Positions 24,400 to 62,158 of a stretch of 64,000 bases of DNA are shown here, one piece after another. Below the pieces are notes generated by a model. It was not told the origin of the DNA. It saw only the letters and a program-made list of their open reading frames with translations, and ran no database searches. Made by a program: the position numbers and the translations under genes. The DNA is from a virus. Location of the stretch: IMG/VR virus record IMGVR_UViG_3300025919_000136, positions 24,425-88,424 of that record; one strand, written 5' to 3'. Position 1 is the stretch's first letter. Every line of letters begins with the position of its first letter.

Positions 24400-25425
24400 T
24401 TATCCCTCGGCGGGTGCTTCCGTCGGCTCCGCATGGGCTTCGGTAGTCGCTTCCGCCGACTCTGTTGATTCAGGCGCGTTCTCCGGCGTGGCCTGCTTGC
24501 CCTTGGGCGCATTCACCTTCAGCGAGTAGTCGTACGGATGGCCACCGTTGGCTACGAACTCGTCGGCCTTCGCCTTGGCTTCCTCCGCCATCTGGACCCG
24601 TTCGCGAGCGGACTTGACCTTCTTCGCGGCGATAGGACTGAAGGGATGGATGCGCTGGTCCATCAGGGCCCAGTTCAACGAAGCGGTGGCGTTCTCCACG
24701 CGGGCCTGAGCCAGTTCGACCACGGTCGGCTTGGGGCCGATACCCTCGGCCTTGGGGCCGAACTTCGCGGCGAACTTCTCTTCGCGGAGGCGCAGCTTCT
24801 CTTCGCGGATGGCGGCGAGCTCTTCCGGCGACTTCGCAGGCTTGGGCGTGCGCGGCTGCTTCGGCTCACGTGGTTGGCGCACCTTGTTGTTCTGCACGTC
24901 GACGTAGATGGCATGCGCTTCGCGACCCTTGTCGGTGAGCGTGACCTCGTTGGTGGTCTGGTCCACTTCGATCAGCTTGCGGTTGCCCAACGAACCGATG
25001 ATGGCTACGGCCGTCAGCGCATCGCCGTACTCGCGGGTGACGTTCTGCAGCTGGATGGACGGATTGTCCTGCACGATCGTCAGCACCTTGAAGTCACGCG
25101 TGGTGATGGTGGGCTGCTTACGTTCCTGGCGAGTGGGGTCTCCATCGGCTCCGGGCTTCGGTGCGTTGTCGGTACCATCGCCAGCGGTGGACTGGGTGGG
25201 CGTGGCCGCTTCGGGGTTGGTTGCTTCCTGGGTATCCGTACCCAGATGGCCATTTAGTGCGGCTTCGGCTTCGGCACGCGACTTGAACTTATCGCCGATG
25301 ACATGATCGCCATGGGTTGCGGTCCAGGTCTTGCGGTCCTTGTTCACTGCGACGCGGACATCGGTGCCTTCGTGGGTGCCAGCATAGATATGCTTTCCCT
25401 CCGCCAACTTACTTAATTGTAACAC
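24400..25425 (-). CDS. putative DNA-binding protein with a winged-helix domain
   Basis: Likely GTG start after AAGGAG; KVLTIVQDNP...SLGNRKLIEV...TLTDKG wHTH pattern; Lys/Arg-rich segment; strong codon bias. Confidence 0.65.
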   Translation of the reverse strand: MLQLSKLAEGKHIYAGTHEGTDVRVAVNKDRKTWTATHGDHVIGDKFKSRAEAEAALNGHLGTDTQEATNPEAATPTQSTAGDGTDNAPKPGADGDPTRQERKQPTITTRDFKVLTIVQDNPSIQLQNVTREYGDALTAVAIIGSLGNRKLIEVDQTTNEVTLTDKGREAHAIYVDVQNNKVRQPREPKQPRTPKPAKSPEELAAIREEKLRLREEKFAAKFGPKAEGIGPKPTVVELAQARVENATASLNWALMDQRIHPFSPIAAKKVKSARERVQMAEEAKAKADEFVANGGHPYDYSLKVNAPKGKQATPENAPESTESAEATTEAHAEPTEAPAEG

Positions 25426-47800: not shown

Positions 47801-48026
47801 ATACGACTTAACCGTAGAGACCTACCACAACTTCGCACTCTCTGCCGGAGTATTCGTCCATAATTGTATGGTTATGTGCGGCTATCGTACGGACTGGCGA
47901 ACCTTCAAGGTTCGAAACTCGTGGGGCGCGGACTGGGGTCGACAGGGCTACTGCCACATTCCCTTCGAGTATTTACTCAACAGCGATCTGGCATCCGACT
48001 TCTGGGTCGTAAGAATTGTGAAGTGA
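44856..48026 (+). CDS. papain-like (C1A) cysteine protease containing two inteins
   Basis: Exteins DQNALGC/CTGFG, SPLFIYYNER, GGH/CMVMCGY, VRNSWG.DWG..GY; spliced product about 255 aa. Confidence 0.92.
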   Translation: MAQNMPINKAYGCRPDLADQRDHVCTVEAPASKLPLMMDLQPGMPPIRDQNALGCCFSGETEVSLLDGTVDTLRNLSERISEDPLWVYSCNPDTGGFIPAVATAHKTRTSVHLLRVTLDNGLYIDCTEDHNFLTRDGLYVEAQDLKPDDSLMPLYKALAIEGDELPGYEMIFQNDKLEWTYTHRLTCPWGKGSVRHHKNFNRTDNRPDNLQMMTWEDHNRLHVDNVKEMWACASEEKRAAMLKALKEYNGSEAQRKHSRDLMNALHEKGPEWRSSRSSKGGKNAWQRVSADPQRKQKALDCLGLGHTPESREKAKATQQITMAAPEFKKKQSDRLKAAYRASEKMQRAAHQNGKNIGGVASLRFQILKFARKVLEEEGSLNEVTWEICRCRLQNTYKARVRFGRNTVRKGYKPPRWETVIREFGTEDAVIEAAEVVNHKVVSVEPLDGLHDTYCLSVPDTENFALAAGVYVHNCTGFGTAAVFEFEQMRQKLPVFAPSPLFIYYNERQLEGTVPIDAGAEIRDGIKAIARWGAAPEASWPYDISRFATAPPAEAYADAAPHTAVLYERVPQTLRSMMGVLASGLPIVFGMTVYESFESDEVARTGMVPLPQPQEKVVGGHCFTGDTKVSLLDGRELTFIELVNEFGFSGQPFWVYSCKEDGTIVPGLAHSPRRTGESQKLLMVTLDNGEEIRCTPDHLFMSREGIYVKACELSAGYSLMPLYRRPSEDERMPDYEQLYDVKSKQWKYTHRVVMSDWHDGWYDGVVHHIDFNKFNNSPDNLEVMSWEDHTKLHADMLVEYNRSEKGRETSRQNMKKLWDDPEWRAKMLATTQKNFARGAEKLKREGRHGWAGMDKDKLRKMCSEAGKKGKGRKVPQEVIDRIQATKKKIREEDPEKRAIAATTAANNLKSYNEKLKSGEISISENQRNARRLNGARCTYRKYYEDMFDTFEEYLECRNKNSQDPILYNNHKVVSVEECGEEDVYDLTVETYHNFALSAGVFVHNCMVMCGYRTDWRTFKVRNSWGADWGRQGYCHIPFEYLLNSDLASDFWVVRIVK
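45021..46274 (+). mobile_element. intein 1 with HNH endonuclease (418 aa)
   Basis: CFSGET..., CTEDHNF, HHKNFNRTDNRPDNL, ...YVHN followed by Cys. Confidence 0.92.
46716..47864 (+). mobile_element. intein 2 with HNH endonuclease (383 aa)
   Basis: CFTGDT..., CTPDHLF, HHIDFNKFNNSPDNL, ...FVHN followed by Cys. Confidence 0.92.
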
Positions 48027-48032
48027 TTTTTA

Positions 48033-48482
48033 ATGGCTCTCCCCTTTAAACCCGAGATTAAAGCGAGCATCATCCAGCGGATGAAGGACGGCGAAGATGT
48101 ATCCAGTCTGGCTAGAGAGTTCCGCATCCTACCGAGTACGATCCGCAACTGGCTTAAGGCTGAACAGCTGGACCTTAACGGTATGCGAGGTAGGGAGAAT
48201 GGTCAAGTCTTGGACGAGGCCATTTTCGATTATGTCGTAACCGCACTCGAATGCTTGACGATTCAAGCCCAAGTGTTTTCAGATGAAAGTTATCTCAAAA
48301 CCCAATCAGCAGAGTCCAACGCTGTCCTCCATGGTGTCGTGGCGGACAAGGCGATTCGTATTCTCGAAGCAACCTCAGCCGTCGCACCAGAGTCCAACGG
48401 GCTCTCCCTTGAGGACTTCGGCAACGAGAACTTCCCCAACCACTACGAACCAGCAACAGCAGCTAGCCCGCCTGAAGCCTGA
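48033..48482 (+). CDS. terminase small subunit (HTH)
   Basis: N-terminal HTH (VSSLAREFRILPSTIRNW); directly upstream of TerL. Confidence 0.7.
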   Translation: MALPFKPEIKASIIQRMKDGEDVSSLAREFRILPSTIRNWLKAEQLDLNGMRGRENGQVLDEAIFDYVVTALECLTIQAQVFSDESYLKTQSAESNAVLHGVVADKAIRILEATSAVAPESNGLSLEDFGNENFPNHYEPATAASPPEA

Positions 48483-49956
48483 GCTCCCACTTAGGACCTT
48501 CATCAAGCTGGCCTGGCACGTAGTGGAACCAGGGAACAAGTTCGTGTCTAATTGGCACTTGGACTGCATTAGCGAACATCTAGAAGCGTGCACCTTCGGG
48601 CAAATTCGCTCGCTGATCATCAACATGCCGCCGAGGTGCATGAAATCTCTTAGTGTTGCGGTTTTCTGGCCAGCGTGGGTATGGACCTTCCGTCCGGGGA
48701 GCCGATGGCTCTTCGCTAGCTATTCCGAAGCCTTCTCCACGCGGGATAGCATGAAGTGTCGGCGCGTGATTAAGAGTGACTGGTACCAGCGACGATTCGG
48801 CCACATCTATACGATTTCGCGCGACCAGGATGCGAAGATGCGGTTCGAGAACTCCGCTGCCGGGTTCCGGCTAGCTTCCTCCGTCGCCGGTATGGGTACT
48901 GGCGAAGGCGGAGACTTCATCTGCCCAGACGACCCTCACAAAGTGAAGGAAGCGGAGTCGGACGTGATTCGTCAAGGTGTAGTAGATTGGTGGTTCGAGA
49001 CGATGCCCACCCGTTTCATTGATCCGAAGACTGTAGTGAAAGTTGTCACTATGCAGCGGATCAAGGAAAACGACCTGAGCGGAGAGATCCTCTCCAGAGA
49101 ATTGGGCTACGAACATCTCTGCCTTCCAATGCGCTACGAAGAAGGCCGGACCTTCTACGAAGTCCCAATCAAGCTGGACAGTGGCAAGAAGGCTACTGCG
49201 GACGGCCAAGAGCTACCGAAGGATGCTATCATCGGGACCAGCCTACAGCGGCTTCGTCCAGAGCTCCGTGATCCTCGCAAGGAAGATGGGGAACTGTTGT
49301 GGCCCGCTCGTCTGGACGAGCTCTCAGTACTCCAGATGGAGGGGTCGCTCCTTGAATATGGTACAGCTGGACAGCTGCAACAGCGCCCCGCTCCGCGTGG
49401 TGGAGGTATGCTGCAACGAGACTGGTTCAAGCTGGTGAAGGCAGTACCTCGCGATAGTAAGTTCGTTCGCTACTGGGATAAGGCGGGAACCGAAGGCGGC
49501 ACTGGGGCGCGGACTGCAGGCGTGCTAATGGCGAAGTATCCGGACGGGCGCTACTGCGTGGTAGACGTAGTGAAGGGGCGGTGGGGTGCTACGGGCCGCG
49601 AACAAGTCATCGTGCAGACTGCCGAACTGGATGCTAGAATGTACGGTCGCGTGGAGACCTGGATCGAGCAGGAACCAGGCAGCGGTGGGAAGGAATCTGC
49701 CGAGCTAACCATTCGCGCCTTGGCAGGGTATATCATCTACGCGGAGATAGTACGCGGAGATAAGGTCACACGTGCGGAACCCTTCTGTTCCCAGGCTAGA
49801 GCGAAGAACGTTGATATCATGGACGGTCTGTGGAACATAGAATACTTCGGCGAGATGGAGTCCTTTCCTAATGGACGATTGAAGGACCAGATCGACGGCA
49901 CCAGCGGAGCATTCAACAAACTTGCCCCGCCCAAACTGGAGTGGATTACTCATTAA
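48283..49956 (+). CDS. terL: terminase large subunit (true start uncertain)
   Basis: INMPPRCMKS, ICPDDPH, MQR, YWDKA, IEQEPGSGG, FPNGRLKDQIDG. Confidence 0.93.
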   Translation: MKVISKPNQQSPTLSSMVSWRTRRFVFSKQPQPSHQSPTGSPLRTSATRTSPTTTNQQQQLARLKPELPLRTFIKLAWHVVEPGNKFVSNWHLDCISEHLEACTFGQIRSLIINMPPRCMKSLSVAVFWPAWVWTFRPGSRWLFASYSEAFSTRDSMKCRRVIKSDWYQRRFGHIYTISRDQDAKMRFENSAAGFRLASSVAGMGTGEGGDFICPDDPHKVKEAESDVIRQGVVDWWFETMPTRFIDPKTVVKVVTMQRIKENDLSGEILSRELGYEHLCLPMRYEEGRTFYEVPIKLDSGKKATADGQELPKDAIIGTSLQRLRPELRDPRKEDGELLWPARLDELSVLQMEGSLLEYGTAGQLQQRPAPRGGGMLQRDWFKLVKAVPRDSKFVRYWDKAGTEGGTGARTAGVLMAKYPDGRYCVVDVVKGRWGATGREQVIVQTAELDARMYGRVETWIEQEPGSGGKESAELTIRALAGYIIYAEIVRGDKVTRAEPFCSQARAKNVDIMDGLWNIEYFGEMESFPNGRLKDQIDGTSGAFNKLAPPKLEWITH

Positions 49957-49960
49957 CTAC

Positions 49961-51559
49961 ATGACTGCTGAACTACTACCAGGTTGGGTTGACTTCGCCG
50001 GATACGTTCTATGTCTGGATCGTATCGAATACCCACAGCTTCATCGCGCCATTCAACATCAGTCATTGGTCGAAGTTAAATCCGTCTTAGCGGAGCTAGA
50101 CGCGGCGACACGGAGCATCCCTCCCAGAGAAGGGGCCTGGAAATTCATCGATGCACTGAAGGCCTCCGATGATGGTCCGGGACGATGGGTGACAATTGAC
50201 GGTACCCACGTGTTCATTAAAGATGGGGAGTCGGTAGGCAAAGCTATCCAAGAACTTCATGATCGCAACGAAGGTCAGAAGGATGAATCCCACTCTAGGG
50301 AAGCAGTTGAGCATATAGATAGAGTATCAACAACGATTAATAGTCTTCATGAGAACGCAGATAAGTTACGGAACGAGCCAACGCACGCAGAGCGGCTAGA
50401 TGCTTATTCGCAGCAAGCTTACAGGAAGGACTACGAAGGAGCTAAGCAGCATATCCAGTCGCTACACCAACAAAAGTTAGAAAAGAACCAGCCTACAAAA
50501 TCAGATGTGGAGTCAATTAAGAATCTGTTGAATGGGCACCTAGGAGCCTCCTCGCTTAGTTCAGAAACAGAAAGCGCCCTATCTTCTGGGAGCGATCACC
50601 CTGTAGCTAACGTAGTGCGTCGACTGTCCGAGGAGGTTATAGGTCACCTACCGGAACTCCACCTACACACCAATGAAGAAGGTGCTTCACCAGAAGTTGG
50701 CGGCACCATAGACCTAAAGCAGAGGTTATTCACCAGTAGGCCACAGGAGAAGAATGGCGGAACGCACTACATAGTCCATGACGCGCAAACTGGCACCAAT
50801 GTGTCTGCACTATCCGATAGTCCCGAACTAGGACAAGTACTTCATCACAATCCTAGTGGGTATAGAGTAACTTCAGTCGAGCATACAGAATCAGGCAGGA
50901 CAGTCCATCTGAATGCTAGACCAAACTCCGTACTAGGAAAAGACTACGAGAGTGTGATAGATGGTCTATCCGAACACGACAAGAAAGTCCTGAAGCATTA
51001 CACTCTCGGAGTGTCGTCCTACAAAAGTGGTGTGATGAACCATCAACTATTGAACGATCATCTACGTCACGGCAAGTCTCTTCCCACGTTGGCAGCCCAA
51101 CAGAAATATCAAGATAGCTGGAAGCATGTAGGGTTCAAGAAGGATTATCAGATTAGTGCTCAAGAGGTAGCCCAGAAGCTCCCGGAAATACTACATCGTG
51201 GAGTGGCCCAACACTCTTTCAAGACGTTCAAAGGCACTGATACTAGCAGCCTACCGAAGGACTTGAAAGTTGGAGACGTATTCACCGACCACGGATTTAA
51301 CTCCTCTACAACTGATGAGGCTGTAGCAGGTGAGTTCGCTACTGACAGAGCCAATAAGTCCAAGTCGGATAGAGCTATTGTTGAGATCCACGTGCCTAAA
51401 GGGTCTAAAGGTTTGTACTTGGGTGACAGTTCGGTAGGTATGTATAATGAGAAGGAATTCCTACAACATAAGGCAACTTACAAGGTGACGCATATAGCCG
51501 ATGAAACGGACTCCAAAGGAAAGAAAGTTAGGCGAGTGCACTTGGAAACTATATCATGA
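49961..51559 (+). CDS. VIP2-like ADP-ribosyltransferase, head-associated
   Basis: N..LR, TFKG, GFNSST, EKEFL; WVTIDGTHV motif; between terL and the portal gene. Confidence 0.8.
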   Translation: MTAELLPGWVDFAGYVLCLDRIEYPQLHRAIQHQSLVEVKSVLAELDAATRSIPPREGAWKFIDALKASDDGPGRWVTIDGTHVFIKDGESVGKAIQELHDRNEGQKDESHSREAVEHIDRVSTTINSLHENADKLRNEPTHAERLDAYSQQAYRKDYEGAKQHIQSLHQQKLEKNQPTKSDVESIKNLLNGHLGASSLSSETESALSSGSDHPVANVVRRLSEEVIGHLPELHLHTNEEGASPEVGGTIDLKQRLFTSRPQEKNGGTHYIVHDAQTGTNVSALSDSPELGQVLHHNPSGYRVTSVEHTESGRTVHLNARPNSVLGKDYESVIDGLSEHDKKVLKHYTLGVSSYKSGVMNHQLLNDHLRHGKSLPTLAAQQKYQDSWKHVGFKKDYQISAQEVAQKLPEILHRGVAQHSFKTFKGTDTSSLPKDLKVGDVFTDHGFNSSTTDEAVAGEFATDRANKSKSDRAIVEIHVPKGSKGLYLGDSSVGMYNEKEFLQHKATYKVTHIADETDSKGKKVRRVHLETIS

Positions 51560-51726
51560 ATACCTCCCAACAAATGCCCAAATCTAATACGGACGATCCT
51601 ATCGAAGACGCCCCATCCCGCTTCGAATTCGACGCGACCAACGTCCACTTCGAACGGCTTGGCGGCAAGCCTCAGCCTAAGCAACGATCCACCGCTCCGC
51701 TCCAGAATACGGCGGCGCTCGACTAA

Positions 51727-52065
51727 ATGGAACGAATCCCACCCTTCCCAGAAAACTACGTTGGCCCCACTCACATCCAATCGGGTGGGGTGGATTCGTT
51801 CGGCAATCCGGTCGGCCCTGGATATCCCTTCGAAGCCCACGTGGAAGCACCCGGACCCGTCGCCATAGACCCGGACACACTCATTGATGGCACCGGACAG
51901 CGAATTCAGCAGTCGCTCCCAGAAAATGCGGGGCTCTCGCCCGCAGCCATCGGTACGATCGCCGCACTGGTATTGCCACTACTGGCGATCGTTTACATTA
52001 GCATATTCGTAAAGCTATTCACTTGGATGCTACTGGCGTTTGCAGGACTGCGTGTGGTCTTGTAA
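51727..52065 (+). CDS. membrane protein
   Basis: Hydrophobic C-terminal half. Confidence 0.5.
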   Translation: MERIPPFPENYVGPTHIQSGGVDSFGNPVGPGYPFEAHVEAPGPVAIDPDTLIDGTGQRIQQSLPENAGLSPAAIGTIAALVLPLLAIVYISIFVKLFTWMLLAFAGLRVVL

Positions 52066-52097
52066 ACCCCTGTACATATATCTATACCAATACCCCC

Positions 52098-54113
52098 ATG
52101 GGATTCCTCTCACGCGCACTCACCAAGCTAGGCCAAGAAGTCAAGGCTAACGTCAAAGTACCATTTTCCATCTACGGCTCTCTAGGCCAAGGCGACGCGG
52201 GGATGGGCTATACCTCTTCGCGGGATATTGGCTACCTCTTCACCACGAACCCAGGAGCGCAGTACGACTATCTGACGGCGGCTGGTAATCTGGCCGAGAA
52301 CTCCGTGGTGGCTGCAGCTAGCGAAGCCATTGCCCGCGCATTGCCGGACGCACCCCCAATCCTGGAAGTCAAGAACAAGAAAGGCAAGTGGGAATCCGCT
52401 GGGGATCACGAAGTACTGGACTTCCTTGGTTGGCCTAACGGTGCTCCGGATAAGGACGTTCGCGGTTACTCCGCAGCGCACCTATGGGCGGCAACCATTC
52501 GCTCGGAGTATACGAACGGTAATGGATTCTGGAGACTCGTGGTGGCTCGCGATGGCACCCCATTAGAAGCGTGGTGGGAGCCGTTCATGTCGCCTCGGTA
52601 CAACAAGACGGAGTTCATCCAAGACTACGTAATCTACGTGGATGGCAAACCATACTATCTCCCTGTTGAACAAGTCGTCCACTTCCGGCTGGCACTGAAC
52701 CCGTACAACTCGCGTTGGGGCTACACCCCACTCTATACGGCTGTACGCCATGTAGACGGCGATAACCGGGCCGCGACGTTCCATACTGCCCTACTGCGGA
52801 ATGGAGCTGTAGGAAGCTACTCGGTGTCCTTAAATGATTCGGCTGACTACGCCAAGGCAGGCATCACGCCCAAGCAGTTCGACGCTACCTTAGCTAAGTG
52901 GGAGAAGCGGCTACGTGGCGAGGGTGCGGGGCGGATGATCTCGTCTTCTCTGCCAGTGAAGATCGATAAGCTGGACTACTCCCCCAACGATCTGATGCTG
53001 GATAAGTTGGTGGCCTACTACGAGTCACGCATCTGTGCAGTGTTGGGCATCCCGGCGATGGTGATTGGCATCTCTTCTGGAGACAGTACCAAGACCTATT
53101 CCAACTACGAAGAGGCACTGAAGGACTTCTGGCAGCGGACGATCAAGCCGCTCAACGGGCTGCACGCCTCGGAGTTGGGAGCACAGTTGCTACCGCTGTT
53201 CGGTCTGTCCCCGTCCGAGTATCGTATTAACTGGGACTACAGCAACGTATCCGCGTTGCAGGAATCCGTGGATGCGGTGCACACGCGGGCGCGAGCGAAC
53301 TGGCAAGCAGATGGTATTACGCTGAACGAATTCCGAGGTCATATTGGCGAAGAGACGAAGCCGGAATTTGAAGATGTCTGGTACACTAACCAAGGTCCGA
53401 AGGAAATAAGCAGCTTCGACCCGAACGATCCTTCTAATCAACCACCTGAAGCCACCCCAACCCCACTCCCAAGCGGAGCATCCTCTCCAGAAGATGGGCC
53501 AACAACGCAAACCGACGAAGAGCAGTTGGCTGCGTTAGATAAGGGCGCGACGAAGTCGGAAGACGAACCACGCGACGATCATGGCAGGTGGACGTCGGAA
53601 GAAGTTACCCCTCCAAAAGCTGATACCAACCAGCCAACTTCCCGCTCCGAACTCTCCAAGCTGAACCATAAGGTCTCCACGAGGGAGAAGCAACAGTACG
53701 CGGAGCAGCAGGAAGTAGACCTTGCGCAGCACTTGGGCGGCTATTCCCTGGAAGACAACGAACCGCCCGACATCATTGTGCCGAACAAGTCCGGCAAGGG
53801 TCACCAGCCAATAGAGCTCAAAACGATGCTGGACAACGACCGCGACCGCATTACAATTCACGCTGATTCGCTGGAAAGGAAGCAAAAGTACGCCGCCGAC
53901 AATAAAACGACGTTCCATACGGTGGTACTCGACCATCGCGATCGATTCGCTGGCGGGGTGAATGCCCACCAGCACTCCGGCCACGAGATCTACTATCGGA
54001 GGGGGCTGGGTAGCTACAAACTCTCCGCAATGTACAAGGTGAAGGATCACGCTGAATTGAATCGACTGATACACATGTCGAATAGCAAACTTCCGTTAGG
54101 AGCGCGACCATGA
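52098..54113 (+). CDS. HK97-type portal protein with C-terminal PD-(D/E)XK-like domain
   Basis: GNGFW, VVHFR, GYTPL, ICAVLGIP, TYSNYEE, ITLNEFR; tail EPPDIIV...IELKT. Confidence 0.9.
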   Translation: MGFLSRALTKLGQEVKANVKVPFSIYGSLGQGDAGMGYTSSRDIGYLFTTNPGAQYDYLTAAGNLAENSVVAAASEAIARALPDAPPILEVKNKKGKWESAGDHEVLDFLGWPNGAPDKDVRGYSAAHLWAATIRSEYTNGNGFWRLVVARDGTPLEAWWEPFMSPRYNKTEFIQDYVIYVDGKPYYLPVEQVVHFRLALNPYNSRWGYTPLYTAVRHVDGDNRAATFHTALLRNGAVGSYSVSLNDSADYAKAGITPKQFDATLAKWEKRLRGEGAGRMISSSLPVKIDKLDYSPNDLMLDKLVAYYESRICAVLGIPAMVIGISSGDSTKTYSNYEEALKDFWQRTIKPLNGLHASELGAQLLPLFGLSPSEYRINWDYSNVSALQESVDAVHTRARANWQADGITLNEFRGHIGEETKPEFEDVWYTNQGPKEISSFDPNDPSNQPPEATPTPLPSGASSPEDGPTTQTDEEQLAALDKGATKSEDEPRDDHGRWTSEEVTPPKADTNQPTSRSELSKLNHKVSTREKQQYAEQQEVDLAQHLGGYSLEDNEPPDIIVPNKSGKGHQPIELKTMLDNDRDRITIHADSLERKQKYAADNKTTFHTVVLDHRDRFAGGVNAHQHSGHEIYYRRGLGSYKLSAMYKVKDHAELNRLIHMSNSKLPLGARP

Positions 54114-56761
54114 CTTACGAAGCATATCTCAACGGCGAGTATGCCGGTCCCGCTGCTACGGTGAAGGGTTGGGGGAACTTTGGTAGGTGGACAAGATGCC
54201 TTCCAGAAGACCAGTACCCCACACTTAGTGAACTAGAGAAAAGTGGTCGGACCTCGAACGGCCACCTTCTGGCAGGAGAGCTCCGCCAGGGCATGCAGCA
54301 ATTCCCGCCCCGCGAAGCAGTGCGGAGTACTGCGGAGGGATTGCTGGCCTATGTGGGCGACGCGAGCGAAGGCGCGGTGTTGGAGATCTCGGACGGGACG
54401 GCGGATGATGTGGATGAAGATGAGGAGCCTGAGACTAAATCAACGGACGACGAACCAAGAGATGAATACGGACGATGGACCTCTGGTTCTAATTCATATG
54501 CTCACGAATGGAAAGGCGGTAAGCCTTGGGAAGATGATACATTTGAAGATAACGCTAAACAGCTTGGACTAGAAGTTCATGATGAATCGATAGGTAAAAC
54601 CAGCCGCAGTTATGTGGTACTGAATAATCCTGTGACGGTCTATCACGTAACTAGAGGCGCCAACGTAGATGCTATACTTAAAAATGGATTGCAGCCAACA
54701 GACAATGGAGGCAGGCAGGTGAATGGCGTTTATTTAGGTGGTAAGGATATAGCTTCATATCTTGGAGACGAAGGCCACCTATTGAAGGTTCGCCTGCCAG
54801 TAGGAACTAAATTGTACCAAGATGTGCAGCCAAATGCTGTTTTAGTGCGCCACCCTATCCCAAGCAAAGACGTAGAGCTAGTGGATACAAATAAGCATAC
54901 TGAGACTAAGTCCTTCAACGGCTACTCCTACGCCTCCACGCAGGTTAATCTCCCCGAACCACTCGCAAGCCAAATCACCGATTGGGCCGCAGCCAATATC
55001 CCTGTCGATTCGCTGCACGACGAATCCCAGGGGCAAGACGTGCCCCACATCACGGTAAAGTACGGAATATTAGATGACTCGCCAGCGAGTTCGGAAGCGG
55101 CACTCCGGTTTACGGGTCCAATCCAAGCTACGCTGCGGAACATGAAGGTATTCCGGTTTTCACCTTCGTACGACGTGCTGGTGATCGCCGTAGACAGCCC
55201 CGACCTGCACAATGCGAACAGTACCATAAAAGCAGTGGTGCCGACGGTGGATACATTCCCAACATACGATCCCCACGTGACGGTGGCTTACGTCAAGAAA
55301 GGTGAAGGGGAAGCGTTCGACGGGAATGGGGAGTTTTCTGGGCAGAACTTGCAGTTTGGTAGCGTAATCTTCAGTAGTAAGGACGGCGAAGAGTATGAGA
55401 TCCCGCTGAACGGCTACGATTTCTATTCACCGTACAACAACTACGATGAAGAAGTGACCTATCCCGAACTAGAAGCGAAGTCCTGGGAAGACGAGCCCCG
55501 CGATGAGTCCGGTAAGTGGACCACTGGCGATGCAGATACCGACCGCAAGCTAGCGGCCCTCCGCTGGGAGGGGCGCAAGCTACGCGAGACACTGAAGACT
55601 CACGAAGCGAAGCTGAAGGATGCCCGCGAACGCGGCGACGAAGCCGCCATCAAGGAGCACGACGCCAATCATCGCCGCACCGCTATCGAGTTGCGTAAGC
55701 TACGCGAACAGCATCATCAGTTGGCGGGCAAGAAGGAGTATAAGAATCCGTACGAGAAACGCGGAGGAACTTCTCCAGAGAAGGGGCCAAAACCGGAACC
55801 AGAGCTGGTGAAGGATACGAGGCCAGAAGCACAGAAAGTGCGGGAGCAACTGCTCGCAGATAGCAAGTCTATAGACGAACAGTGGCAGAAGCATTATGAT
55901 AGGTACAATGAAACCGACAGCAAGATTGTCGACATAAATAGCAAAATTCGTGATATTCATCTAGATAATGATGAACATAATCGATACGACGCGAATCAGC
56001 TAGAGGATGTCATGGAGCCTCTTCGCAAGGAACGGTCGAAACTATACGAAGACATGGCCGATGCCCAGCGGGCTATGACCCAACTGGATAAGGACCGAAT
56101 TGTCAAGTTGAGGCAAAATTTGTACCAAGACACATCTAAGATAAGCCGTAAGTTTAGAGTTGTTTATAGTGATACAGGAGGCGAGAAAATCCCTCCTTCT
56201 ACTCGACGAGCAGTGGAAGGTGGTATGGAAGAATTCCACAAGCTAGCCGCATCGGCAATATACAATTCTGCAGCTATAACGTTCAAGAGGGAAACCAAGA
56301 CTAGATCCAACGCAAATGGGCACCAAATTAGTCTAGATAAGAACTCTGGCCAGGATATAGTAGTTCACGAGTTAGGCCACGTACTAGAAAACAATAACCC
56401 GGATATCCATAAGGCTGCTGTAGCTTTCCTGGCCAAACGGACCAAAGGCGAATCACTTAAGCCGCTGAGTTTTCTCACTGGGCAAAAGGGTTACGGGAGT
56501 ATTGAAAAAGCACGCAAAGATAAGTTCATCAATCCCTACATGGGCAAGGACTATTCTCCAAGTCAGAAATGGGAACAAGGACGGTGGAAGGATGTGGACA
56601 ATAACGCAGTATACTCAGACCCGTCCAAGAACCCAGCCACCGAAATCATCTCTATGGGCCTAGAATATATGCACTCCCAGCCGCATGTTCTGGCAGAGAA
56701 GGACCCGGAGTACTTTGACTTCATGTATAACGTATTAAGAGGCAATTACGATGCAGTTTGA
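54110..56761 (+). CDS. polyvalent head-associated protein: ART-like, 2H phosphoesterase (Acb1-like), coiled coil, zincin
   Basis: YHVT...ILKNGL...GVYL; PHITVKYG and PHVTVAY; VHELGH...EIISMGLE. Confidence 0.8.
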   Translation: MTYEAYLNGEYAGPAATVKGWGNFGRWTRCLPEDQYPTLSELEKSGRTSNGHLLAGELRQGMQQFPPREAVRSTAEGLLAYVGDASEGAVLEISDGTADDVDEDEEPETKSTDDEPRDEYGRWTSGSNSYAHEWKGGKPWEDDTFEDNAKQLGLEVHDESIGKTSRSYVVLNNPVTVYHVTRGANVDAILKNGLQPTDNGGRQVNGVYLGGKDIASYLGDEGHLLKVRLPVGTKLYQDVQPNAVLVRHPIPSKDVELVDTNKHTETKSFNGYSYASTQVNLPEPLASQITDWAAANIPVDSLHDESQGQDVPHITVKYGILDDSPASSEAALRFTGPIQATLRNMKVFRFSPSYDVLVIAVDSPDLHNANSTIKAVVPTVDTFPTYDPHVTVAYVKKGEGEAFDGNGEFSGQNLQFGSVIFSSKDGEEYEIPLNGYDFYSPYNNYDEEVTYPELEAKSWEDEPRDESGKWTTGDADTDRKLAALRWEGRKLRETLKTHEAKLKDARERGDEAAIKEHDANHRRTAIELRKLREQHHQLAGKKEYKNPYEKRGGTSPEKGPKPEPELVKDTRPEAQKVREQLLADSKSIDEQWQKHYDRYNETDSKIVDINSKIRDIHLDNDEHNRYDANQLEDVMEPLRKERSKLYEDMADAQRAMTQLDKDRIVKLRQNLYQDTSKISRKFRVVYSDTGGEKIPPSTRRAVEGGMEEFHKLAASAIYNSAAITFKRETKTRSNANGHQISLDKNSGQDIVVHELGHVLENNNPDIHKAAVAFLAKRTKGESLKPLSFLTGQKGYGSIEKARKDKFINPYMGKDYSPSQKWEQGRWKDVDNNAVYSDPSKNPATEIISMGLEYMHSQPHVLAEKDPEYFDFMYNVLRGNYDAV

Positions 56762-56802
56762 TTTGCCAAGCGCAAGCGAACGGCTTAGCGAAGAGGTTCA
56801 TT

Positions 56803-57222
56803 ATGTCAGTTAAAGTACGCTTAGCCTCCGGCGAAGTGGCGATCGTAGACGGCTACGAATGGGTGGCGGCGGACCCGCAATTGCGAACGCTACTCAACAC
56901 CTTCAAGCAACCTTACGGCCCCTCCGCAAGCGATCCCGACCCAGACTATTCGCTGGCGGAAACCGTTATTGGGATGCTTGGTGGCGAGATCGTCTCGGCA
57001 GACCCACCGCTAGACCCGCCCCAATATGGCGACCCCAACCCCACACCAAGTACTGTTAGCGGAGCACCTCTCCCAGAAGATGGGGCCACAAAATCCACCA
57101 GCCCTGACAGAGACGTACCCGACTTCACGGATCCCAACGTCCAGAAAAGTACCGCATCCGAATCCTATGCGCAAGCGTCTGCACCATTTAAAGAGCTCCT
57201 CGCGGCGGACGTGGTGGACTAG
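56803..57222 (+). CDS. small acidic protein
   Basis: GAGG RBS before MSVKVRL. Confidence 0.6.
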   Translation: MSVKVRLASGEVAIVDGYEWVAADPQLRTLLNTFKQPYGPSASDPDPDYSLAETVIGMLGGEIVSADPPLDPPQYGDPNPTPSTVSGAPLPEDGATKSTSPDRDVPDFTDPNVQKSTASESYAQASAPFKELLAADVVD

Positions 57223-57224
57223 CT

Positions 57225-57857
57225 ATGGATTTCGAGCCAAAGAGTCTGCTGCGCTACTCGCGCAAGCTACTGAAGTACCTAGATGACAGCGGAAAAGTGC
57301 TCTCCGCCAAGGCCGTGCGGAAGATAGTAGATGGCGATATAGAGGCTACTGCAGGTAGACTCTACTCCATACTTCAAGACTTCCAATCCGGTCGATTAGA
57401 TGAAGCCCAATTTAGGGCGGACTTCAAGAAGTCAGTAAGTAATCTGCATTTAGCTCACGTAGCCGCTGCTCAAGGCGGCTTCCGCAATATGAACCAAGCG
57501 GCGTGGGGTTTTGCTGGACAGCGAATCCGCCAACAATATACATATGTAGATGGACTAGTTAGCGACATACAGCAGGGTCTTCTGAGCGGCCCCAAGGGGC
57601 TGCTTAGAATGAAACTGTGGGCCTCCAGTGCGATGGATTCGTACGAAGCCATGCTGGCGAAAGTACATAACTCAGTGCATTTCCCCTTCGCGGAGAACCT
57701 ACTGAACCAGCAGAACATTAGCGAAAAGAACTGCCCAATTTGCACTGGGCTGACCGCACTTGGAATCACGGATCGCGACGATATACCGCTCCCAGAAGAC
57801 CGGCACTTCAGCTGCAACTGCGGCATTGCCTACCACCGTACGCTTGACGGAGATTGA
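57225..57857 (+). CDS. MuF-like minor head protein
   Basis: C-terminal CPIC...HFSCNC; between the portal and protease genes. Confidence 0.7.
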   Translation: MDFEPKSLLRYSRKLLKYLDDSGKVLSAKAVRKIVDGDIEATAGRLYSILQDFQSGRLDEAQFRADFKKSVSNLHLAHVAAAQGGFRNMNQAAWGFAGQRIRQQYTYVDGLVSDIQQGLLSGPKGLLRMKLWASSAMDSYEAMLAKVHNSVHFPFAENLLNQQNISEKNCPICTGLTALGITDRDDIPLPEDRHFSCNCGIAYHRTLDGD

Positions 57858-57860
57858 ATT

Positions 57861-60749
57861 ATGACTGCTACCGCTACCATATACGAACCCACGGACTTAG
57901 CTCTGAAGGCATACGGCTTCGGCGGATCCGGCAGTTACACAGAAACCAAAGCTGACGACGACACTGGTTGGAGGACAATAGACGGTCGCCACGTCTATTT
58001 TGGGGATGACGGAGAGCAGCATACAGGAAAGGACGCGGTAGAAGCTTCAAAGAAAGACTCAGAAAAATCATCTGATGAAGCAGATAGTAAGTCCCAGCAC
58101 GCCCACGAGTCTACAGCGAACTCCAATGCATCGTCAGACACTAAAATAAACTCGTACTCAGCTAACTCCAACTCGAGCAAAGCCAAAGAAAATAACTCAG
58201 CTGATGCTTCTGACTCTAAGTTAAAAGAGGCGCAGGCACATCACGAAAAGGCTGCTAGAGCCCACGCTAGAGCAGCCAAACACCTAGAGAGTAATCCGTC
58301 AGGCACCCAACCAAACACAGGCGGCACCAAAGAGGACGAGAGTAAGAAAGATACCAATGCCAAACTACACCGAGACGCTCAGAGAGCTCATGAGAGTGCA
58401 GCAGATAAGCTATCGGAGCATTTACATCATTCAAGTAGAGATAGTCTAGAAGAAGCGAAGAAGGACGCTGCCAGTTCTACGGAAAAAGCTGACACAGCTA
58501 CGAAGAATGCTAGGAAATTTGATAAAGAGAAATCTACTGCCAACAACTCCGCTGGTCGAGAGTCTCACAAAGCTAAGTCTGAATCGGACGGTATAGGATT
58601 CCATACTACCGAAGGTGATATTCAACACGCACATCACAATATCGCGGCCCATCACACATCGGCGGCGGAGGCTCATCGGGAGCAGGCTTCTCGAGCTCGA
58701 AACGGGAACGACCAGGCAGCTCACCACGCAGCAGCCAAAGCGCACTTGGAAGCTGCAGCGAAGCACAAGGCGTTGTCCTTGCGTGGACCATACGAGAAGA
58801 AGTCCGAGGCCGACGATATAATGTCTGCAAAAGCTGCACGGAGTGAATTTATGAAAACTGCCGCCGACGTCCTGATTAGCTACGGCTCCGAACTGAAAGC
58901 CACTGGCACCGACGAAAACGGAGACTTCCACTTCGGCGGCTACTTGGTGCTGTTCGACAGCCATGATGTCTCGCGTCAGCGGGACAAGTATCTGAAGTCT
59001 ACGGACTACGACTTCGAGGATGGGGACAAGACCACCATCTACTTCCACCATGGCTTGGACGAGACGCTGAAGGCCACCAAGCTGGGCACTGGCAAGCTGT
59101 ATATGAAGGACGCTGGCGTGTGGATGGACGGCATCATCAAGGCCCGCACGGACTACCTCGCGAAGCATGTGGACAAGATCAAAGACGGTATTAAGGACGG
59201 ATATTTTGGCCTATCCAGCGGCGTCCCCGCCCACCTGGTGGAGCGCAAGGCCGTCCCCGCTGGCCACGAAGTGCTCACTTGGCCCCTAGGCAAGGATGCT
59301 TCCATTACGCACATCCCCGCCGAGCCCAAGACGATGTGCTTTTCGTTGAAGTCGTTGATGGAGGAAGAGAGCGGAGAAGCTCTCCCAGAAGATGGCCCAT
59401 TTTCTGGAGCGGATACTCCGCTTGAAGCGAAGTACTCCGACGACGAAGAACGCGACGAACATGGCCGCTGGACGGCTGGTGGAGCTAAGGATGCTCTATC
59501 TGCTAGTGAAGCTGCAGACTCCGCCAGCCAGGATACTGGGGTTGATAGCTCTCCGGACGACGAAGTTGGAGGAGGGACCTACTTCGCTAAGGACTTTGCT
59601 CTATCCGCCACAGAGGGTGGCAAGGAAGCTGCCAACAACCACGGCACCGCAGCTAACCTGCATCAGATCATGGTTGACTACCACAATGACCAAGCAAAAC
59701 AGTCGTCTGATGTTGATGAAAAACTGGCCCATCAGAAGGCTGCAACCCTCCACACCACTGCAGCCGCAATGCACCGTGGTCTGGCGAAGGCGGCTAGTGG
59801 GAGTTCGAGTCCATCTTCTGGAGAGAGTGGCTCCGCGACTAGTAATTCGCAAAGCGCTATATCCGGAGCAGCTATGGACGAATCTCAAGCTGCTTGGAAG
59901 GCTACCAATAAGGCTGAAGGTCCTGGACCCAAAAGTCACTCAAGAATGCATCGGGTTGGCGAAACTTCAGCTATTGCCCGCAGAGCTACCCAAACGGAGG
60001 ATCCGAGACAGGCCATTGCGCTACATAACCAAGCAGCTAAGGACCACGAAACTCACGCTGCTATTCATAGCAATCGCGCCAACTATCCGGATGATCCGAC
60101 TGCAGGAAGCAACCGCACAATGGAACAAGCTTCTCGCGATCATCTGGCTGCTTCAGATGCTCACGAAAAAGCAGCTAAGGCCCATCGCAACGCCGCTAGA
60201 ATGTTGAAGAAGTATTTACCAGAGAAGAAGGATGATGGTTCGTACGACGATGTAAGTTCAATTATCACTCCTGACGTTATACAGGTTCTGGCGGATGGTC
60301 GGCATGTAGGCCTCCGCTTCCAGGACCACCCAAAAGTGGTGCTTGCAGCCATGAAGGGATTCGTACATCGCTTGTTCGATTGGCACGTGGATCGAACGGC
60401 GAGTCGTAAAAGTGGACAGGTATACTCCGGGGATAACTGGGATATGCACGACACCATTTGCAACGGAATGGCGCAGATGGTGCAGCAGTACCGTAATCAC
60501 CTGGATGACAACTGCCCGCCTGGGCGTAAACCGTGCAAGGTCCCTGTAGTGCAACTAGGTACAGCGGCTCCGCTGTCGTGGTCGGATTCTGGTGGAGCGC
60601 TAGGTACCGATCAGTTCAAGGCAACCGACAGCGCCGACGCGCTGGAACGGATGGAAGCTGAGTTGCTCGAACGTCAAGCGGCCTTCGCCCGCCTTCGGGC
60701 TGATGGGTTGCTGATCCAAGAGCGAATGGTTGCAGCTGCAGTAGACTAG
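57861..60749 (+). CDS. prohead maturation protease with large His/Ala-rich extensions
   Basis: Core about 58890-59350: FGGYLVLF, YFHHG, GVWMDG, GLSSG, ASITHIPAEP. Confidence 0.82.
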   Translation: MTATATIYEPTDLALKAYGFGGSGSYTETKADDDTGWRTIDGRHVYFGDDGEQHTGKDAVEASKKDSEKSSDEADSKSQHAHESTANSNASSDTKINSYSANSNSSKAKENNSADASDSKLKEAQAHHEKAARAHARAAKHLESNPSGTQPNTGGTKEDESKKDTNAKLHRDAQRAHESAADKLSEHLHHSSRDSLEEAKKDAASSTEKADTATKNARKFDKEKSTANNSAGRESHKAKSESDGIGFHTTEGDIQHAHHNIAAHHTSAAEAHREQASRARNGNDQAAHHAAAKAHLEAAAKHKALSLRGPYEKKSEADDIMSAKAARSEFMKTAADVLISYGSELKATGTDENGDFHFGGYLVLFDSHDVSRQRDKYLKSTDYDFEDGDKTTIYFHHGLDETLKATKLGTGKLYMKDAGVWMDGIIKARTDYLAKHVDKIKDGIKDGYFGLSSGVPAHLVERKAVPAGHEVLTWPLGKDASITHIPAEPKTMCFSLKSLMEEESGEALPEDGPFSGADTPLEAKYSDDEERDEHGRWTAGGAKDALSASEAADSASQDTGVDSSPDDEVGGGTYFAKDFALSATEGGKEAANNHGTAANLHQIMVDYHNDQAKQSSDVDEKLAHQKAATLHTTAAAMHRGLAKAASGSSSPSSGESGSATSNSQSAISGAAMDESQAAWKATNKAEGPGPKSHSRMHRVGETSAIARRATQTEDPRQAIALHNQAAKDHETHAAIHSNRANYPDDPTAGSNRTMEQASRDHLAASDAHEKAAKAHRNAARMLKKYLPEKKDDGSYDDVSSIITPDVIQVLADGRHVGLRFQDHPKVVLAAMKGFVHRLFDWHVDRTASRKSGQVYSGDNWDMHDTICNGMAQMVQQYRNHLDDNCPPGRKPCKVPVVQLGTAAPLSWSDSGGALGTDQFKATDSADALERMEAELLERQAAFARLRADGLLIQERMVAAAVD

Positions 60750-60751
60750 TA

Positions 60752-60775
60752 GTTCAGCGAACTAGTTCGCTGAAC
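60752..60775. repeat. perfect 24-bp palindrome upstream of the capsid RBS
   Basis: GTTCAGCGAACT-AGTTCGCTGAAC. Confidence 0.75.
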
Positions 60776-60805
60776 AGTAGCATAGTAAAGAGGAATGCAA
60801 GCACA

Positions 60806-62158
60806 ATGCCAACTTTAAAAGAGAAGAACGACGCCCTCGCGAAGCTGCGAGCGGATCATCAGAAGCGGTTCGAGGCGTTCGACGCCGAAACCGACAGCGG
60901 ACGCAAGTCCGCCATCTTGCAGGAAATCAACCGGGCTGAAGTGGACATCAAGTCCCTCAGCGACGAGGTCGCGCAGGAAGTCCAAGTCGTCGAGATGAAG
61001 CGGCGCAACGAGGCCGAGATGAAGGGCCTCCGGCTCCCGGCTGGCGTCGGGGTGCCCTTCCCGGAGCGTGGCGGCAAGGACGGCGAGCTCCACGGCGAGC
61101 GCATGAGCGCCATCAAGTCTGTCGGTCAGTCGCTGATCGACGACAAGTCGGACATCATGCATAAGTTCCGCGAGTACAACGAGAAGTACGACGTGGTCTA
61201 CGAGTACCCCTTCCGCTCCGTGGGCGAATGGAAGGCTGCGATCCAAGCGGAAATGAAGACGACCCTGACCGAGTCGGGCTTCACCGCGTACGACCGGTTG
61301 CCCAACATCATCACCCTTGGTGCTCAGGTGCCGATGGTTCGCGACCTGATCCCTCAGGGCCAGACAACCGCGATCACCATCCGCTACCCACGTGAAGTGT
61401 CGTACACCAACGGCGCGACGAACGTGGCCGAAGGTGGCCAGAAGCCAGAAGCGGTGTTCAACCTGGCGGAAGTCGACGCTCCGGTGCGCAAGATCGCCGT
61501 CGTAGCTCGCGTCACCGACGAGATGTTCGCTGACTTCCCGGCTGTCCGCGACTACATCAACATGCGGCTTCCCTTTATGGTGGAGCAGCAAGAAGATAAC
61601 CAGATCCTGAACGGAAATGGTAGCTCGCCGAACCTGCAGGGTATTCTGGGCACGACTGGCGTGCTGTCCGGCGGCGCGTTGAACCAGTCCGCCAGCCCCG
61701 CCGACGACCCGATCGTGAACGTGATCCTCCGTGCGATCACGCGCATCCAGGCTGAGTCCTTCTTCCAGCCTACGGGTATCGTCATCAACCCGTTCGACTG
61801 GGAGAACGTCCGCCTGATGCGTTCGGGTACTGGCGACGCTGCCGGTGGTGCGAACCGTGGGCTATACCTGTTCGGTAACCCGGACGGTATGGGTATCGAC
61901 TCCATCTGGGGTCTGCCCGTCGTGAAGACCGTATACTGCCCTCGCGGTAAGGTACTGGTCGGCGCGTTCAGCCTCGGCGCTCAGATCTTCCGTCGCGAAG
62001 GCATCACCATGCAGATGTCGAACTCCGATGGCAACGACTTCTCTTACAACCGTGTCGCGTTGCGGGTGGAAGAGCGTCTCGCTCTGGCCGTGTATCGTCC
62101 AAGCGCCTTCGGTGTCTGCACCCTGCATAGCTACGGTGAGGCCTCGAGCTCCGCGTAA
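60806..62158 (+). CDS. major capsid protein (HK97 fold)
   Basis: Coiled-coil delta domain, VAEGGQKPE, ILNGNG, IWGLPVV, RVEERLALAVYRPSAF. Confidence 0.95.
   Translation: MPTLKEKNDALAKLRADHQKRFEAFDAETDSGRKSAILQEINRAEVDIKSLSDEVAQEVQVVEMKRRNEAEMKGLRLPAGVGVPFPERGGKDGELHGERMSAIKSVGQSLIDDKSDIMHKFREYNEKYDVVYEYPFRSVGEWKAAIQAEMKTTLTESGFTAYDRLPNIITLGAQVPMVRDLIPQGQTTAITIRYPREVSYTNGATNVAEGGQKPEAVFNLAEVDAPVRKIAVVARVTDEMFADFPAVRDYINMRLPFMVEQQEDNQILNGNGSSPNLQGILGTTGVLSGGALNQSASPADDPIVNVILRAITRIQAESFFQPTGIVINPFDWENVRLMRSGTGDAAGGANRGLYLFGNPDGMGIDSIWGLPVVKTVYCPRGKVLVGAFSLGAQIFRREGITMQMSNSDGNDFSYNRVALRVEERLALAVYRPSAFGVCTLHSYGEASSSA

Follow-up and report, generated by a model that had tools for sequence, protein, structure and literature searches.

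How does a phage with an HK97-type head bring enzymes into its host when the enzymes are fused to the proteins that build the head? The question is raised by a head gene module in IMG/VR record IMGVR_UViG_3300025919_000136. The window analysed here (64,000 nucleotides, positions 24,425 to 88,424 of the record) is the final 64 kb of a single-contig phage genome of 88,424 bp. All genes at 48283-62158 are on the + strand. The head genes follow one another in the order large terminase (terL), a protein of 545 amino acids (aa) with an ADP-ribosyltransferase (ART) domain, a 112-aa open reading frame (ORF), a 696-aa portal protein, an 883-aa protein, a 154-aa and a 210-aa protein, a 962-aa protease protein and an HK97-type major capsid protein (Table 1). 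A sequence-only reading of the window had noted that four of these proteins (ART, portal, 883-aa and protease) carry extra domains behind a putative cleavage site and a short repeated peptide, or tag. The locus suggests an undescribed way of loading and releasing proteins that are carried in virus heads.

Two tags are repeated in the module. Tag 1, (D/E)E(P/E)RDxxG(R/K)WT, is present once in the portal, once in the protease protein and twice in the 883-aa protein; tag 2, WxTIDGxHV, is present in the ART and the protease proteins. All six copies come directly after (E/A)-x-K, termed K-site below, and the positions previously assigned to K-sites, tagged and untagged alike, were all exact on re-checking. 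Six-frame scans, made on the window as well as on the complete genome of 88,424 bp, found RD..G[RK][WFY] four times and the WxTIDGxHV type twice, in the head module only. The degenerate DNA pattern of tag 1 had four matches in the window and none in each of 100 dinucleotide-preserving shuffles. Since the four copies share just 62-80% DNA identity, they have been kept as peptides and are not recent DNA duplicates. K-sites without a tag precede the 2H domain (ETK↓SF, the arrow marking the presumed cut) and the protease core (ELK↓AT), and another closes the capsid delta domain (EMK↓TT). As there are at least three such sites, the presumed cut does not require the tag. Comparison supported the earlier interpretation in part, as regards the extra domains, the fit of the Lys site to a maturation protease, and the link between tag, K-site and domain boundary.

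The best explanation for the whole, which we favour by a little over its contrary, is that head-assembly proteins carry enzyme cargo through units of a K-site and a hairpin. The carriers would be the portal, two proteins sharing a small N-terminal domain, and the protease-scaffold protein of an HK97-type head. Each reusable joint would comprise a flexible linker ending in (E/A)-x-K, a hairpin peptide of ~10-17 residues and the cargo domain. Inside the prohead a Lys-specific maturation protease would cut after the Lys, as for the capsid delta domain, and would probably also cut out its own core; the outcome would be separate enzymes within the capsid, entering the host along with the DNA. Such a cut by the prohead protease, with release of enzymes that enter the host with the DNA, is probable. 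The hairpin would stay at the new N-terminus of each freed piece as a handling label. We propose only tentatively that it docks or sorts cargo in the head or orders its exit, rather than being part of the cut site. More doubtful still is a wider view, in which the tags would be a carrier-independent, pan-phage address code for capsid cargo, fused to portal, MuF or protease or stand-alone, with the same ~10-residue Arg-Trp hairpin read by phages of unrelated portal, capsid and protease families. Whatever domain lay behind a tag would then be taken into the head, cut free by the head protease of the phage in question and passed on for delivery.

Units of K-site and hairpin exist, and related phages gain, lose and move cargo by them, as seen in two relatives. 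L143, an 85-kb IMG/VR phage, has a near-identical terminase, portal, protease core, protease C-terminal domain and capsid protein, and its portal has the same arrangement of core, tag and extension. It has no ART gene between terminase and portal, which are separated by just ~300 bases. Its N-domain protein stops after GETK↓SVDDEPRDERGRWT and a 260-aa domain. A separate 2H protein begins with 25 unrelated residues and then rejoins the window sequence exactly at ELK↓SFNGYSYAS, and between the 2H domain and the next tag there is an extra cassette, AVK↓YSDDEPRDDSGKWT, with a domain of ~200 aa. The L143 protease lacks the K-site with tag 2 (ETK↓) and the His-rich insert, and has two DDLELK↓YSDD[EQ]ERDDxGRWT cassettes past the core. 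In the second relative, P0370, the N-domain is joined straight to the 2H domain via SVELK↓KFNGYSYAS. After the 2H domain, the tag 2 of the window (WVTIDGTHVFIKDGESV) and an ART-PolyVal domain stand behind AKAK↓, and the end of the polyvalent protein (HHETK↓SREDEPRDDQ) is fused to the tail of the 154-aa protein. Both phages thus differ from the window by whole units, which makes K-site, tag and domain together the unit of gain, loss and movement.

The claim that the Lys site suits a maturation protease is supported by the capsid protein. It matched HK97 gp5 (PDB 1ohg) with an E of 5.8e-44, mature HK97 residue 17 being aligned to residue 164. HK97 gp5 reads FNK↓SLGSD and the solved mature chain begins at that S, so that the equivalent cut falls at most 4 residues from EMK151↓T152. 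Of 59 aligned capsid relatives, 57 have kept K151, and every one has A or T directly after this position. Conservation begins exactly at K151, the alignment just before it being variable and gapped, a pattern as would be expected of a processing site. Within the delta domain E-M-K occurs three times (VVEMK↓RR, EAEMK↓GL, QAEMK↓TT), likewise in L143, which is consistent with several cuts.

The 962-aa protease protein stayed below the Pfam cut-off for S78 (PF04586; 15.4 bits, E 0.021, cut-off 21) and had no PHROG match, and Pfam gave no S78 match on the protease proteins of L143 and of Salinibacter phages. Searching with residues 330-525 retrieved 1,663 cluster representatives at E ≤ 0.001, a family that appears poorly covered by the Pfam model. 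From these, 101 were aligned for an AlphaFold2 (AF2) model, in which the core reached a predicted local distance difference test score (pLDDT) of 94-98. The best fold matches in Foldseek were herpesvirus assemblins (4v07_A, E 9.7e-4) and T4 gp21 (5jbl_A, E 1.1e-2); against the sequences of PDB chains, the core gave chance matches only. H397, S452, K346 and K497 are invariant in all 101 aligned relatives, and S452 aligned with GMSVG of HK97 gp4. In the relatives K346 stands in the context G[GS][EA][VIL]K↓[AST][LV]G, and K497, which lies in a linker of pLDDT <50 just past the core, in [SA][LIV]K↓[SA][LY]. HK97 gp4 has EIK↓FTG and AAMK↓SV at the matching places (HK97 record L144, 3348-4025). Conserved as they are, the two Lys flanking the core are candidates for self-cleavage throughout the family.

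Tag 1 was found in 18 of the best 150 protease relatives, 10 times within 25 residues past the core and 4 times near the N-terminus. The typical site reads E-[IL]-K-K↓Y-D-P-x-Q-P-R-D-x-x-G-K-W. K or R directly precedes the aromatic residue of the tag in 15 of these 18 related sequences, compared to 35 of 117 tags from other phages (Fisher p 2e-5), so the Lys goes with the protease family of the window. The comparison sample consisted of 117 distinct tags from IMG/VR phages. Because the hidden Markov model of the family matched just two of the 140 IMG/VR loci searched (L130 and L143, which gave no tag to that sample), the protease relatives themselves were used for the residues before the tag. 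The link between tag, K-site and domain boundary in homologs, which the sequence-only reading had named beforehand as the point at which it could fail, therefore holds in L143, in P0370 and in 15 of the 18 tagged protease relatives.

Junctions of this kind bear the same tags in many unrelated phages. The tag 1 DNA pattern was present in at least 118 IMG/VR stretches, with fewer than 10 chance matches among them by our estimate, which combines the pattern's information content with a guess at the size of the collection. In the flanks that the pattern left free (n = 117), F or Y is found at position -4 in 88, followed by D/N/S, P/E/D and D/N/S at -3 to -1, and downstream G occupies +11, +12 and +13 in 78, 82 and 65. 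There were 121 distinct tag 1 ORFs, and the 89 with a length of 200-1000 aa were scanned with Pfam. They had DUF7178 (9), MuF (5), four portal families (6 together), S78/S78_2 (4), ADPrib_exo_Tox (3), topoisomerase IB (3), ART-PolyVal (1) and PARP (1), plus single cases of Acb1, InPase, histidine phosphatase, zeta toxin, HNH, Tpt1 and SAM lyase. DUF7178 (L004, L035 and others), the commonest Pfam family on tag 1 proteins, is N-terminal to the tag, where the carrier would be. Ten ORFs were picked for having the tag in mid-protein, and nine of them had a core domain: five portals (one below the Pfam cut-off), two MuF and two DUF7178. The tag lies 24-124 residues past the end of the matched domain, L005 giving no distance as its portal was partly matched.

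With a profile of 111 tag windows, 99 proteins were detected at E ≤ 0.01 among 8,000 scored candidates, many of them with multiple copies (best 185 bits), and NUDIX, GNAT, ParB and FAD oxidoreductases were added to the partner domains. Some tagged proteins are large polyproteins. P0005 (1535 aa) runs from portal to MuF, with four K↓[YF]S.. tagged modules in between. P0051 (1671 aa; locus L006) has a lethal-factor-like zincin, tagged modules and then an S78 protease fused to the capsid protein, and also carries a KHPR...GQF variant of the tag. Judged by their make-up, both polyproteins would need cutting to work. At the other extreme, seven tags begin 4-13 residues from the ORF start and two are at the extreme C-terminus. 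Two N-terminally tagged proteins that were inspected belong to head modules, in L081 after the terminase and portal genes and in L030 before a protease-capsid fusion.

Tag 2 was rarer, its pattern being found in 22 IMG/VR stretches, 15 of them in open frames of at least 100 aa, with the extended context [GS][HRK]WVTIDGxHV[FLY]. The nine ORFs scanned included three portals of three families, with the tag 76-168 residues past the core, a topoisomerase IB with the tag at residue 9, and a polyprotein of 1,920 aa that combines a 2H domain with an XkdF-type protease. Judged by these contexts, the two tags behave in the same way. The G(R)W.T of tag 1 is also part of tag 2, which looks like a longer form of it.

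In the AF2 models, a bridge from Arg(i) to Trp(i+6) was found in all three modelled copies of tag 1, within linkers of low confidence: R531-W537 in the protease protein (pLDDT ~78), and R117-W123 and R464-W470 in the 883-aa protein. In these models the tags look like autonomous small beta-hairpins closed by an Arg-Trp pair. The 2H domain of the 883-aa protein was modelled confidently at aa ~273-435; the K-sites next to it, at residues 267 and 457, belong to stretches of pLDDT <50 on its two sides (157-272 and 436-463). At loose thresholds, Pfam and NCBIfam gave no family at either tag besides a marginal match of tag 2 to Choline_bind_3 (27.1 bits, cut-off 27), which is also a hairpin unit. We rejected tag 2 as a choline-binding repeat: it is a single unit with no tandem array, and the likeness is in shape only. 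An N-degron created by cutting before an aromatic residue was dismissed as well, the new N-termini in the window being mostly Ser or Ala, and so was DNA binding, the motif and its flanks being strongly acidic. A complex prediction for capsid protein, protease core and tag peptide scored 0.00 in a run without controls and has no bearing on binding.

A third repeated peptide, SG-x-x-(S/L)-PEDG-(P/A), precedes the K-site by 3-20 residues in three proteins, namely the portal, the 154-aa and the protease protein (68-79% DNA identity between copies), with a weaker copy elsewhere (Table 1). It may be part of a longer processing unit.

As to the carriers and their cargo, the N-terminal ~70 residues of the ART protein match those of the 883-aa protein (BLASTP E 3e-7), and this common domain is the likeliest element to bring both into the prohead. 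Most of the extra domains named by the sequence-only reading were recognized again: the ART by Pfam, the 2H domain by Pfam and fold, and the zincin by its HELGH. The portal nuclease remained just a PD-(D/E)XK lead (PDDEXK_14 in the feature atlas, score 0.89; a lead only). The 2H domain carries two HxT motifs (PHITVKYG and PHVTVAY). By fold (Foldseek) it matched Usb1, the penguinpox cGAMP phosphodiesterase and phage Acb1 (7t27), with E between 1.6e-5 and 8.5e-5, and in Pfam it scored below the threshold for Acb1 (22.2, cut-off 27). From fold and motifs, we class it as a predicted Acb1-like 2H phosphodiesterase. The zincin part is similar to a protein of PaV-LD whose annotation is that of a virion structural protein. 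With at least two effector-type domains in one polypeptide encoded among head genes, the 883-aa protein is a polyvalent protein. The His-rich helical stretches of the protease-scaffold protein vary strongly among relatives and may be scaffold-like filler rather than cargo. An anti-defence role of the payload is what we infer from the domain types only.

Parts of this picture have precedents, taken here from the searched portions of the papers cited. Polyvalent proteins combine ART, 2H and zincin domains in one polypeptide, are encoded among head genes or as portal/MuF fusions, and are predicted to be packaged and injected, their processing being ascribed to a zincin peptidase (PMC5512222); MuF toxins were treated by Jamet et al. 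2017 (PMC5576092). The proteins of the window are like those of Iyer et al. 2017 in having several conflict-type enzyme domains per polypeptide and in being encoded among head genes or fused to portal/MuF. A shared unit of cut site and hairpin was not described in the searched text of PMC5512222 and PMC5576092, supplements not covered; in that text, 'glycine', 'low-complexity' and 'linker' occur zero times in the former, and 'motif', 'linker' and 'cleav' zero times in the latter. Literature searches by motif spelling and by topic found no description of the tags, with supplements and most subscription papers outside their coverage.

In T4 and SPN3US, the portal is one of many head and ejection proteins that a head protease trims at a short consensus (PMC10052503, PMC9024508), and short peptides direct cargo into proheads in T4 and P1 (PMC9024508). 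In T4 and phiKZ-like phages the targeting peptide is N-terminal to the cut and is removed, whereas here the conserved peptide is C-terminal to the presumed cut and would stay. Moreover, the window has an HK97-like protease that would cut after Lys, and the tag is found across very different phages and not in one lineage. A T4-type capsid targeting sequence was rejected, all six tags of the window coming after the presumed cut and not before it. In P1, the Dar antirestriction proteins are packaged in the head, DarB having an N-terminal signal of 30 residues (PMC9024508). They are alike in being a virion-delivered payload loaded during head morphogenesis, the anti-defence role being here inferred from domain types; unlike here, each is a protein of its own and is loaded stepwise, and neither a repeated tag nor a fusion to portal or protease is present. 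HK97 itself is close in its capsid protein and, by sequence and model, would share the fold class of the protease, its His and Ser positions, and a Lys cut at the equivalent place. However, HK97 gp4 has 225 aa and the HK97 portal is without cargo, whereas here the protease protein has 962 aa, two tagged inserts and a separate conserved C-terminal domain. The C-terminus of HK97 gp4 is said, from work by Duda et al. in 2013, to target gp4 to proheads. The general idea of polyvalent packaging and of capsid targeting peptides is thus already known. What seems new is the conserved unit of cut site and hairpin with the hairpin after the presumed cut, its use within a system of HK97 type, the carriers being the portal, the protease and the N-domain proteins, and its action as a cargo-exchange unit.

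Other explanations have to be weighed against the loading of cargo through K-site and hairpin units. Conserved junction modules are known from the pre-toxin motifs of polymorphic toxins, and the tags might likewise be linkers kept for domain shuffling, in polyproteins that stay uncut in the virion, the Lys being part of the motif. The cassettes of the relatives differ exactly at the tags, as this would have it, and the basic residue at -5 or -6, present in only 63 of 117 IMG/VR tags, could belong to a loose wider consensus. Whole packaging also has precedents: N4 virion RNA polymerase is reportedly packaged whole (cited in the searched part of PMC5512222), and phi24B gp47, a large polyvalent protein, was detected in virions according to a preprint. 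We nevertheless regard mere junctions as quite improbable. The DNA of the tags is just 62-80% identical while the peptide is kept across very distant phages, which speaks for selection on the peptide and not on a recombination sequence; the Lys also marks boundaries without a tag (the end of the capsid delta domain, both protease flanks and the start of the 2H domain); and polyproteins from portal to MuF or from protease to capsid could hardly assemble uncut.

If there is a cut, another enzyme might make it. The 883-aa protein has a conserved HELGH zincin, P0051 has a lethal-factor-like zincin upstream of its tags, and autoproteolysis of polyvalent proteins was proposed by Iyer et al. (PMC5512222), so that the zincin-like metallopeptidase of the 883-aa protein could make the cut, either ahead of packaging or once injected, and recognize its substrate by the tag. 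The same Lys motif, however, is at the end of the capsid delta domain (59 proteins) and at the flanks of the protease core (101), classic substrates of a maturation protease, and no zincin was among the 25 families on the 89 tag-bearing ORFs, though Pfam misses the zincin of the window as well. A zincin as the cutter is therefore very improbable. Somewhat less so, yet still unlikely, is that the hairpin itself is a capsid-targeting signal binding the prohead interior, in the manner of encapsulin cargo peptides, while the neighbouring Lys site just trims the carriers and has no link with the tag. Stand-alone head-module proteins that begin with the tag and have no other shared element fit with this (seven N-terminal tags, with L081 and L030 as examples), and the N-terminal signal of P1 DarB and the T4 targeting sequence are precedents (PMC9024508). 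Against it, the ART and 883-aa proteins already share an N-terminal domain that could target them, and the tag spans four portal Pfam families together with capsid and protease families mostly undetected by Pfam, a variety for which one conserved receptor is hard to see.

Several observations weigh against cargo release at the K-sites. The motif is short and frequent (bare [EA]xK occurs 23 times in the protease protein and 12 times in the 883-aa protein) and turns up within folded domains too, as IELKT in the extension of the portal and as RETKT in the zincin, which means that a site cannot be recognized from its sequence alone. Narrowed to E[TALM]K[STAY] or A[TL]K[STAY], the pattern occurs 13 times in 4,020 head-module residues and 7 times in 22,490 residues elsewhere, a tenfold excess that is partly circular, the pattern having been composed after the head sites were seen. 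Likewise, the invariance of EPRD..GRWT in the IMG/VR sample is by construction, as the sample was drawn with the strict pattern. The 63 of 117 tags with a basic residue, together with the tags at ORF termini, indicate that the tag works without a preceding Lys site. K346 starts the first beta-strand of the protease fold, and its invariance may be structural; the 18 tagged protease relatives are not independent, and shared descent could explain their conserved K. Salinibacter phages share the protease (31% identity) and had no tag in the four ORFs inspected, which, with the tag in only 18 of 150 relatives, makes the tag dispensable for head assembly, an accessory. Finally, of 32 tag-bearing contigs of at least 40 kb, 7 gave a Pfam match to S78 and likewise 7 to Phage_capsid (2 of 18 among contigs at least 90% complete), which speaks against a partner that belongs with a single capsid or protease family; as Pfam misses the window's own protease, we read the 7 of 32 as low sensitivity plus real diversity, and not as a test of a protease link.

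Phages do bring enzymes into their hosts, but only for T4 with its giant relatives, and partly for P1, is it known how this cargo is chosen, loaded and freed. For an HK97-type phage, the present locus supplies a grammar that can be read: carrier, then Lys site, hairpin and cargo. Since the same hairpins are at the same junctions in many uncultured phages, cargo repertoires could be read from sequence. Release of effectors by the head protease, retention of cargo in the head and exchange of counter-defence enzymes among relatives all become testable. An address code, if true, would do for phages what cargo-loading peptides do for encapsulins, and would provide a general means of putting chosen proteins into capsids.

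Table 1 Features of the head module, with positions in the window; arrows mark presumed cuts.
Feature	Position	Strand	Remarks
Large terminase	48283-49956	+	
ART protein	49961-51559	+	ATG 49961; longest frame begins TTG 49922
ART protein, N-terminal domain			~75 aa; paralogous to N-domain of 883-aa protein
ART protein, K-site	50153-50161	+	ALK↓ASDDGPGRWVTIDGTHV
ART protein, tag 2	50180-50218	+	GRWVTIDGTHVFI; then long middle region
ART protein, C-terminal ADP-ribosyltransferase	51194-51526	+	Pfam ADPrib_exo_Tox, E 1.5e-7, aa 425-535
Portal protein with C-terminal extension	52023-54113	+	phrog_2662
Portal core	52302-53336	+	Pfam Phage_portal, E 5.4e-34, aa 94-438
Portal, linker motif	53472-53505	+	SGASSPEDGP
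Portal, K-site	53547-53555	+	ATK↓SEDEPRDDHGRWT
Portal, tag 1	53556-53594	+	
Portal, extension domain	53640-54110	+	~155 aa; PD-(D/E)XK lead
883-aa polyvalent protein	54110-56761	+	phrog_33618 and phrog_19443 (minor head protein family)
883-aa protein, N-domain	54110-54409	+	
883-aa protein, K-site	54431-54439	+	ETK↓STDDEPRDEYGRWT
883-aa protein, tag 1	54440-54481	+	
883-aa protein, weakly ART/Tpt1-like domain	54482-54901	+	
883-aa protein, second ETK↓	54902-54910	+	
883-aa protein, 2H phosphoesterase	54911-55414	+	Pfam 2_5_RNA_ligase2, E 2.8e-7
883-aa protein, K-site	55472-55480	+	EAK↓SWEDEPRDESGKWT
883-aa protein, tag 1	55481-55522	+	
883-aa protein, coiled coil	55532-56116	+	
SG-x-x-(S/L)-PEDG-(P/A), weaker copy	55760-55793		
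883-aa protein, zincin-like domain	56159-56758	+	conserved HELGH
154-aa protein	56758-57222	+	
154-aa protein, SG-x-x-(S/L)-PEDG-(P/A)	57058-57091		
154-aa protein, K-site with degenerate tag-like stretch	57058-57093	+	SGAPLPEDGATK↓STSPDRD
210-aa head-module protein	57225-57857	+	C-terminal Cys-rich motif; phrog_24776, E 8e-26; conserved in L143
962-aa protease protein	57861-60749	+	
Protease protein, K-site	57942-57950	+	ETK↓ADDDTGWRTIDGRHV
Protease protein, tag 2	57951-58001	+	
Protease protein, His-rich helical insert	58038-58850	+	
Protease protein, ELK↓	58890-58898	+	
Protease core	58899-59342	+	assemblin fold; His397 and Ser452
Protease protein, SLK↓	59343-59351	+	
Protease protein, linker motif	59370-59403	+	SGEALPEDGP
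Protease protein, K-site	59424-59432	+	EAK↓YSDDEERDEHGRWT
Protease protein, tag 1	59433-59474	+	
Protease protein, variable helical region	59478-60257	+	
Protease protein, conserved C-terminal domain	60258-60746	+	
HK97-type major capsid protein	60806-62158	+	Pfam Phage_capsid, E 7.8e-35; NCBIfam major_cap_HK97, E 1e-33
Capsid delta domain	60806-61258	+	closing EMK↓ at 61250-61258

Some further features of the module and its surroundings were noted. The large terminase has 32 Lys yet zero [EA]xK, compared to 5-23 in each of the head-interior proteins, which may be chance. The Cys-rich motif of the 210-aa protein presumably resembles the C-terminal motif of MuF. The C-terminal tails of the 154-aa protein (...KELLAADVVD, 57196-57222) and of the protease protein (...ERMVAAAVD, 60720-60749) may be capsid-binding. 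The 112-aa ORF between the ART and portal genes (51727-52065) has a hydrophobic C-terminal stretch. Directly ahead of the terminase genes there is an ORF of 1056 aa (44856-48026), which from its translation looks like a papain-type protease with two related intein-like inserts.

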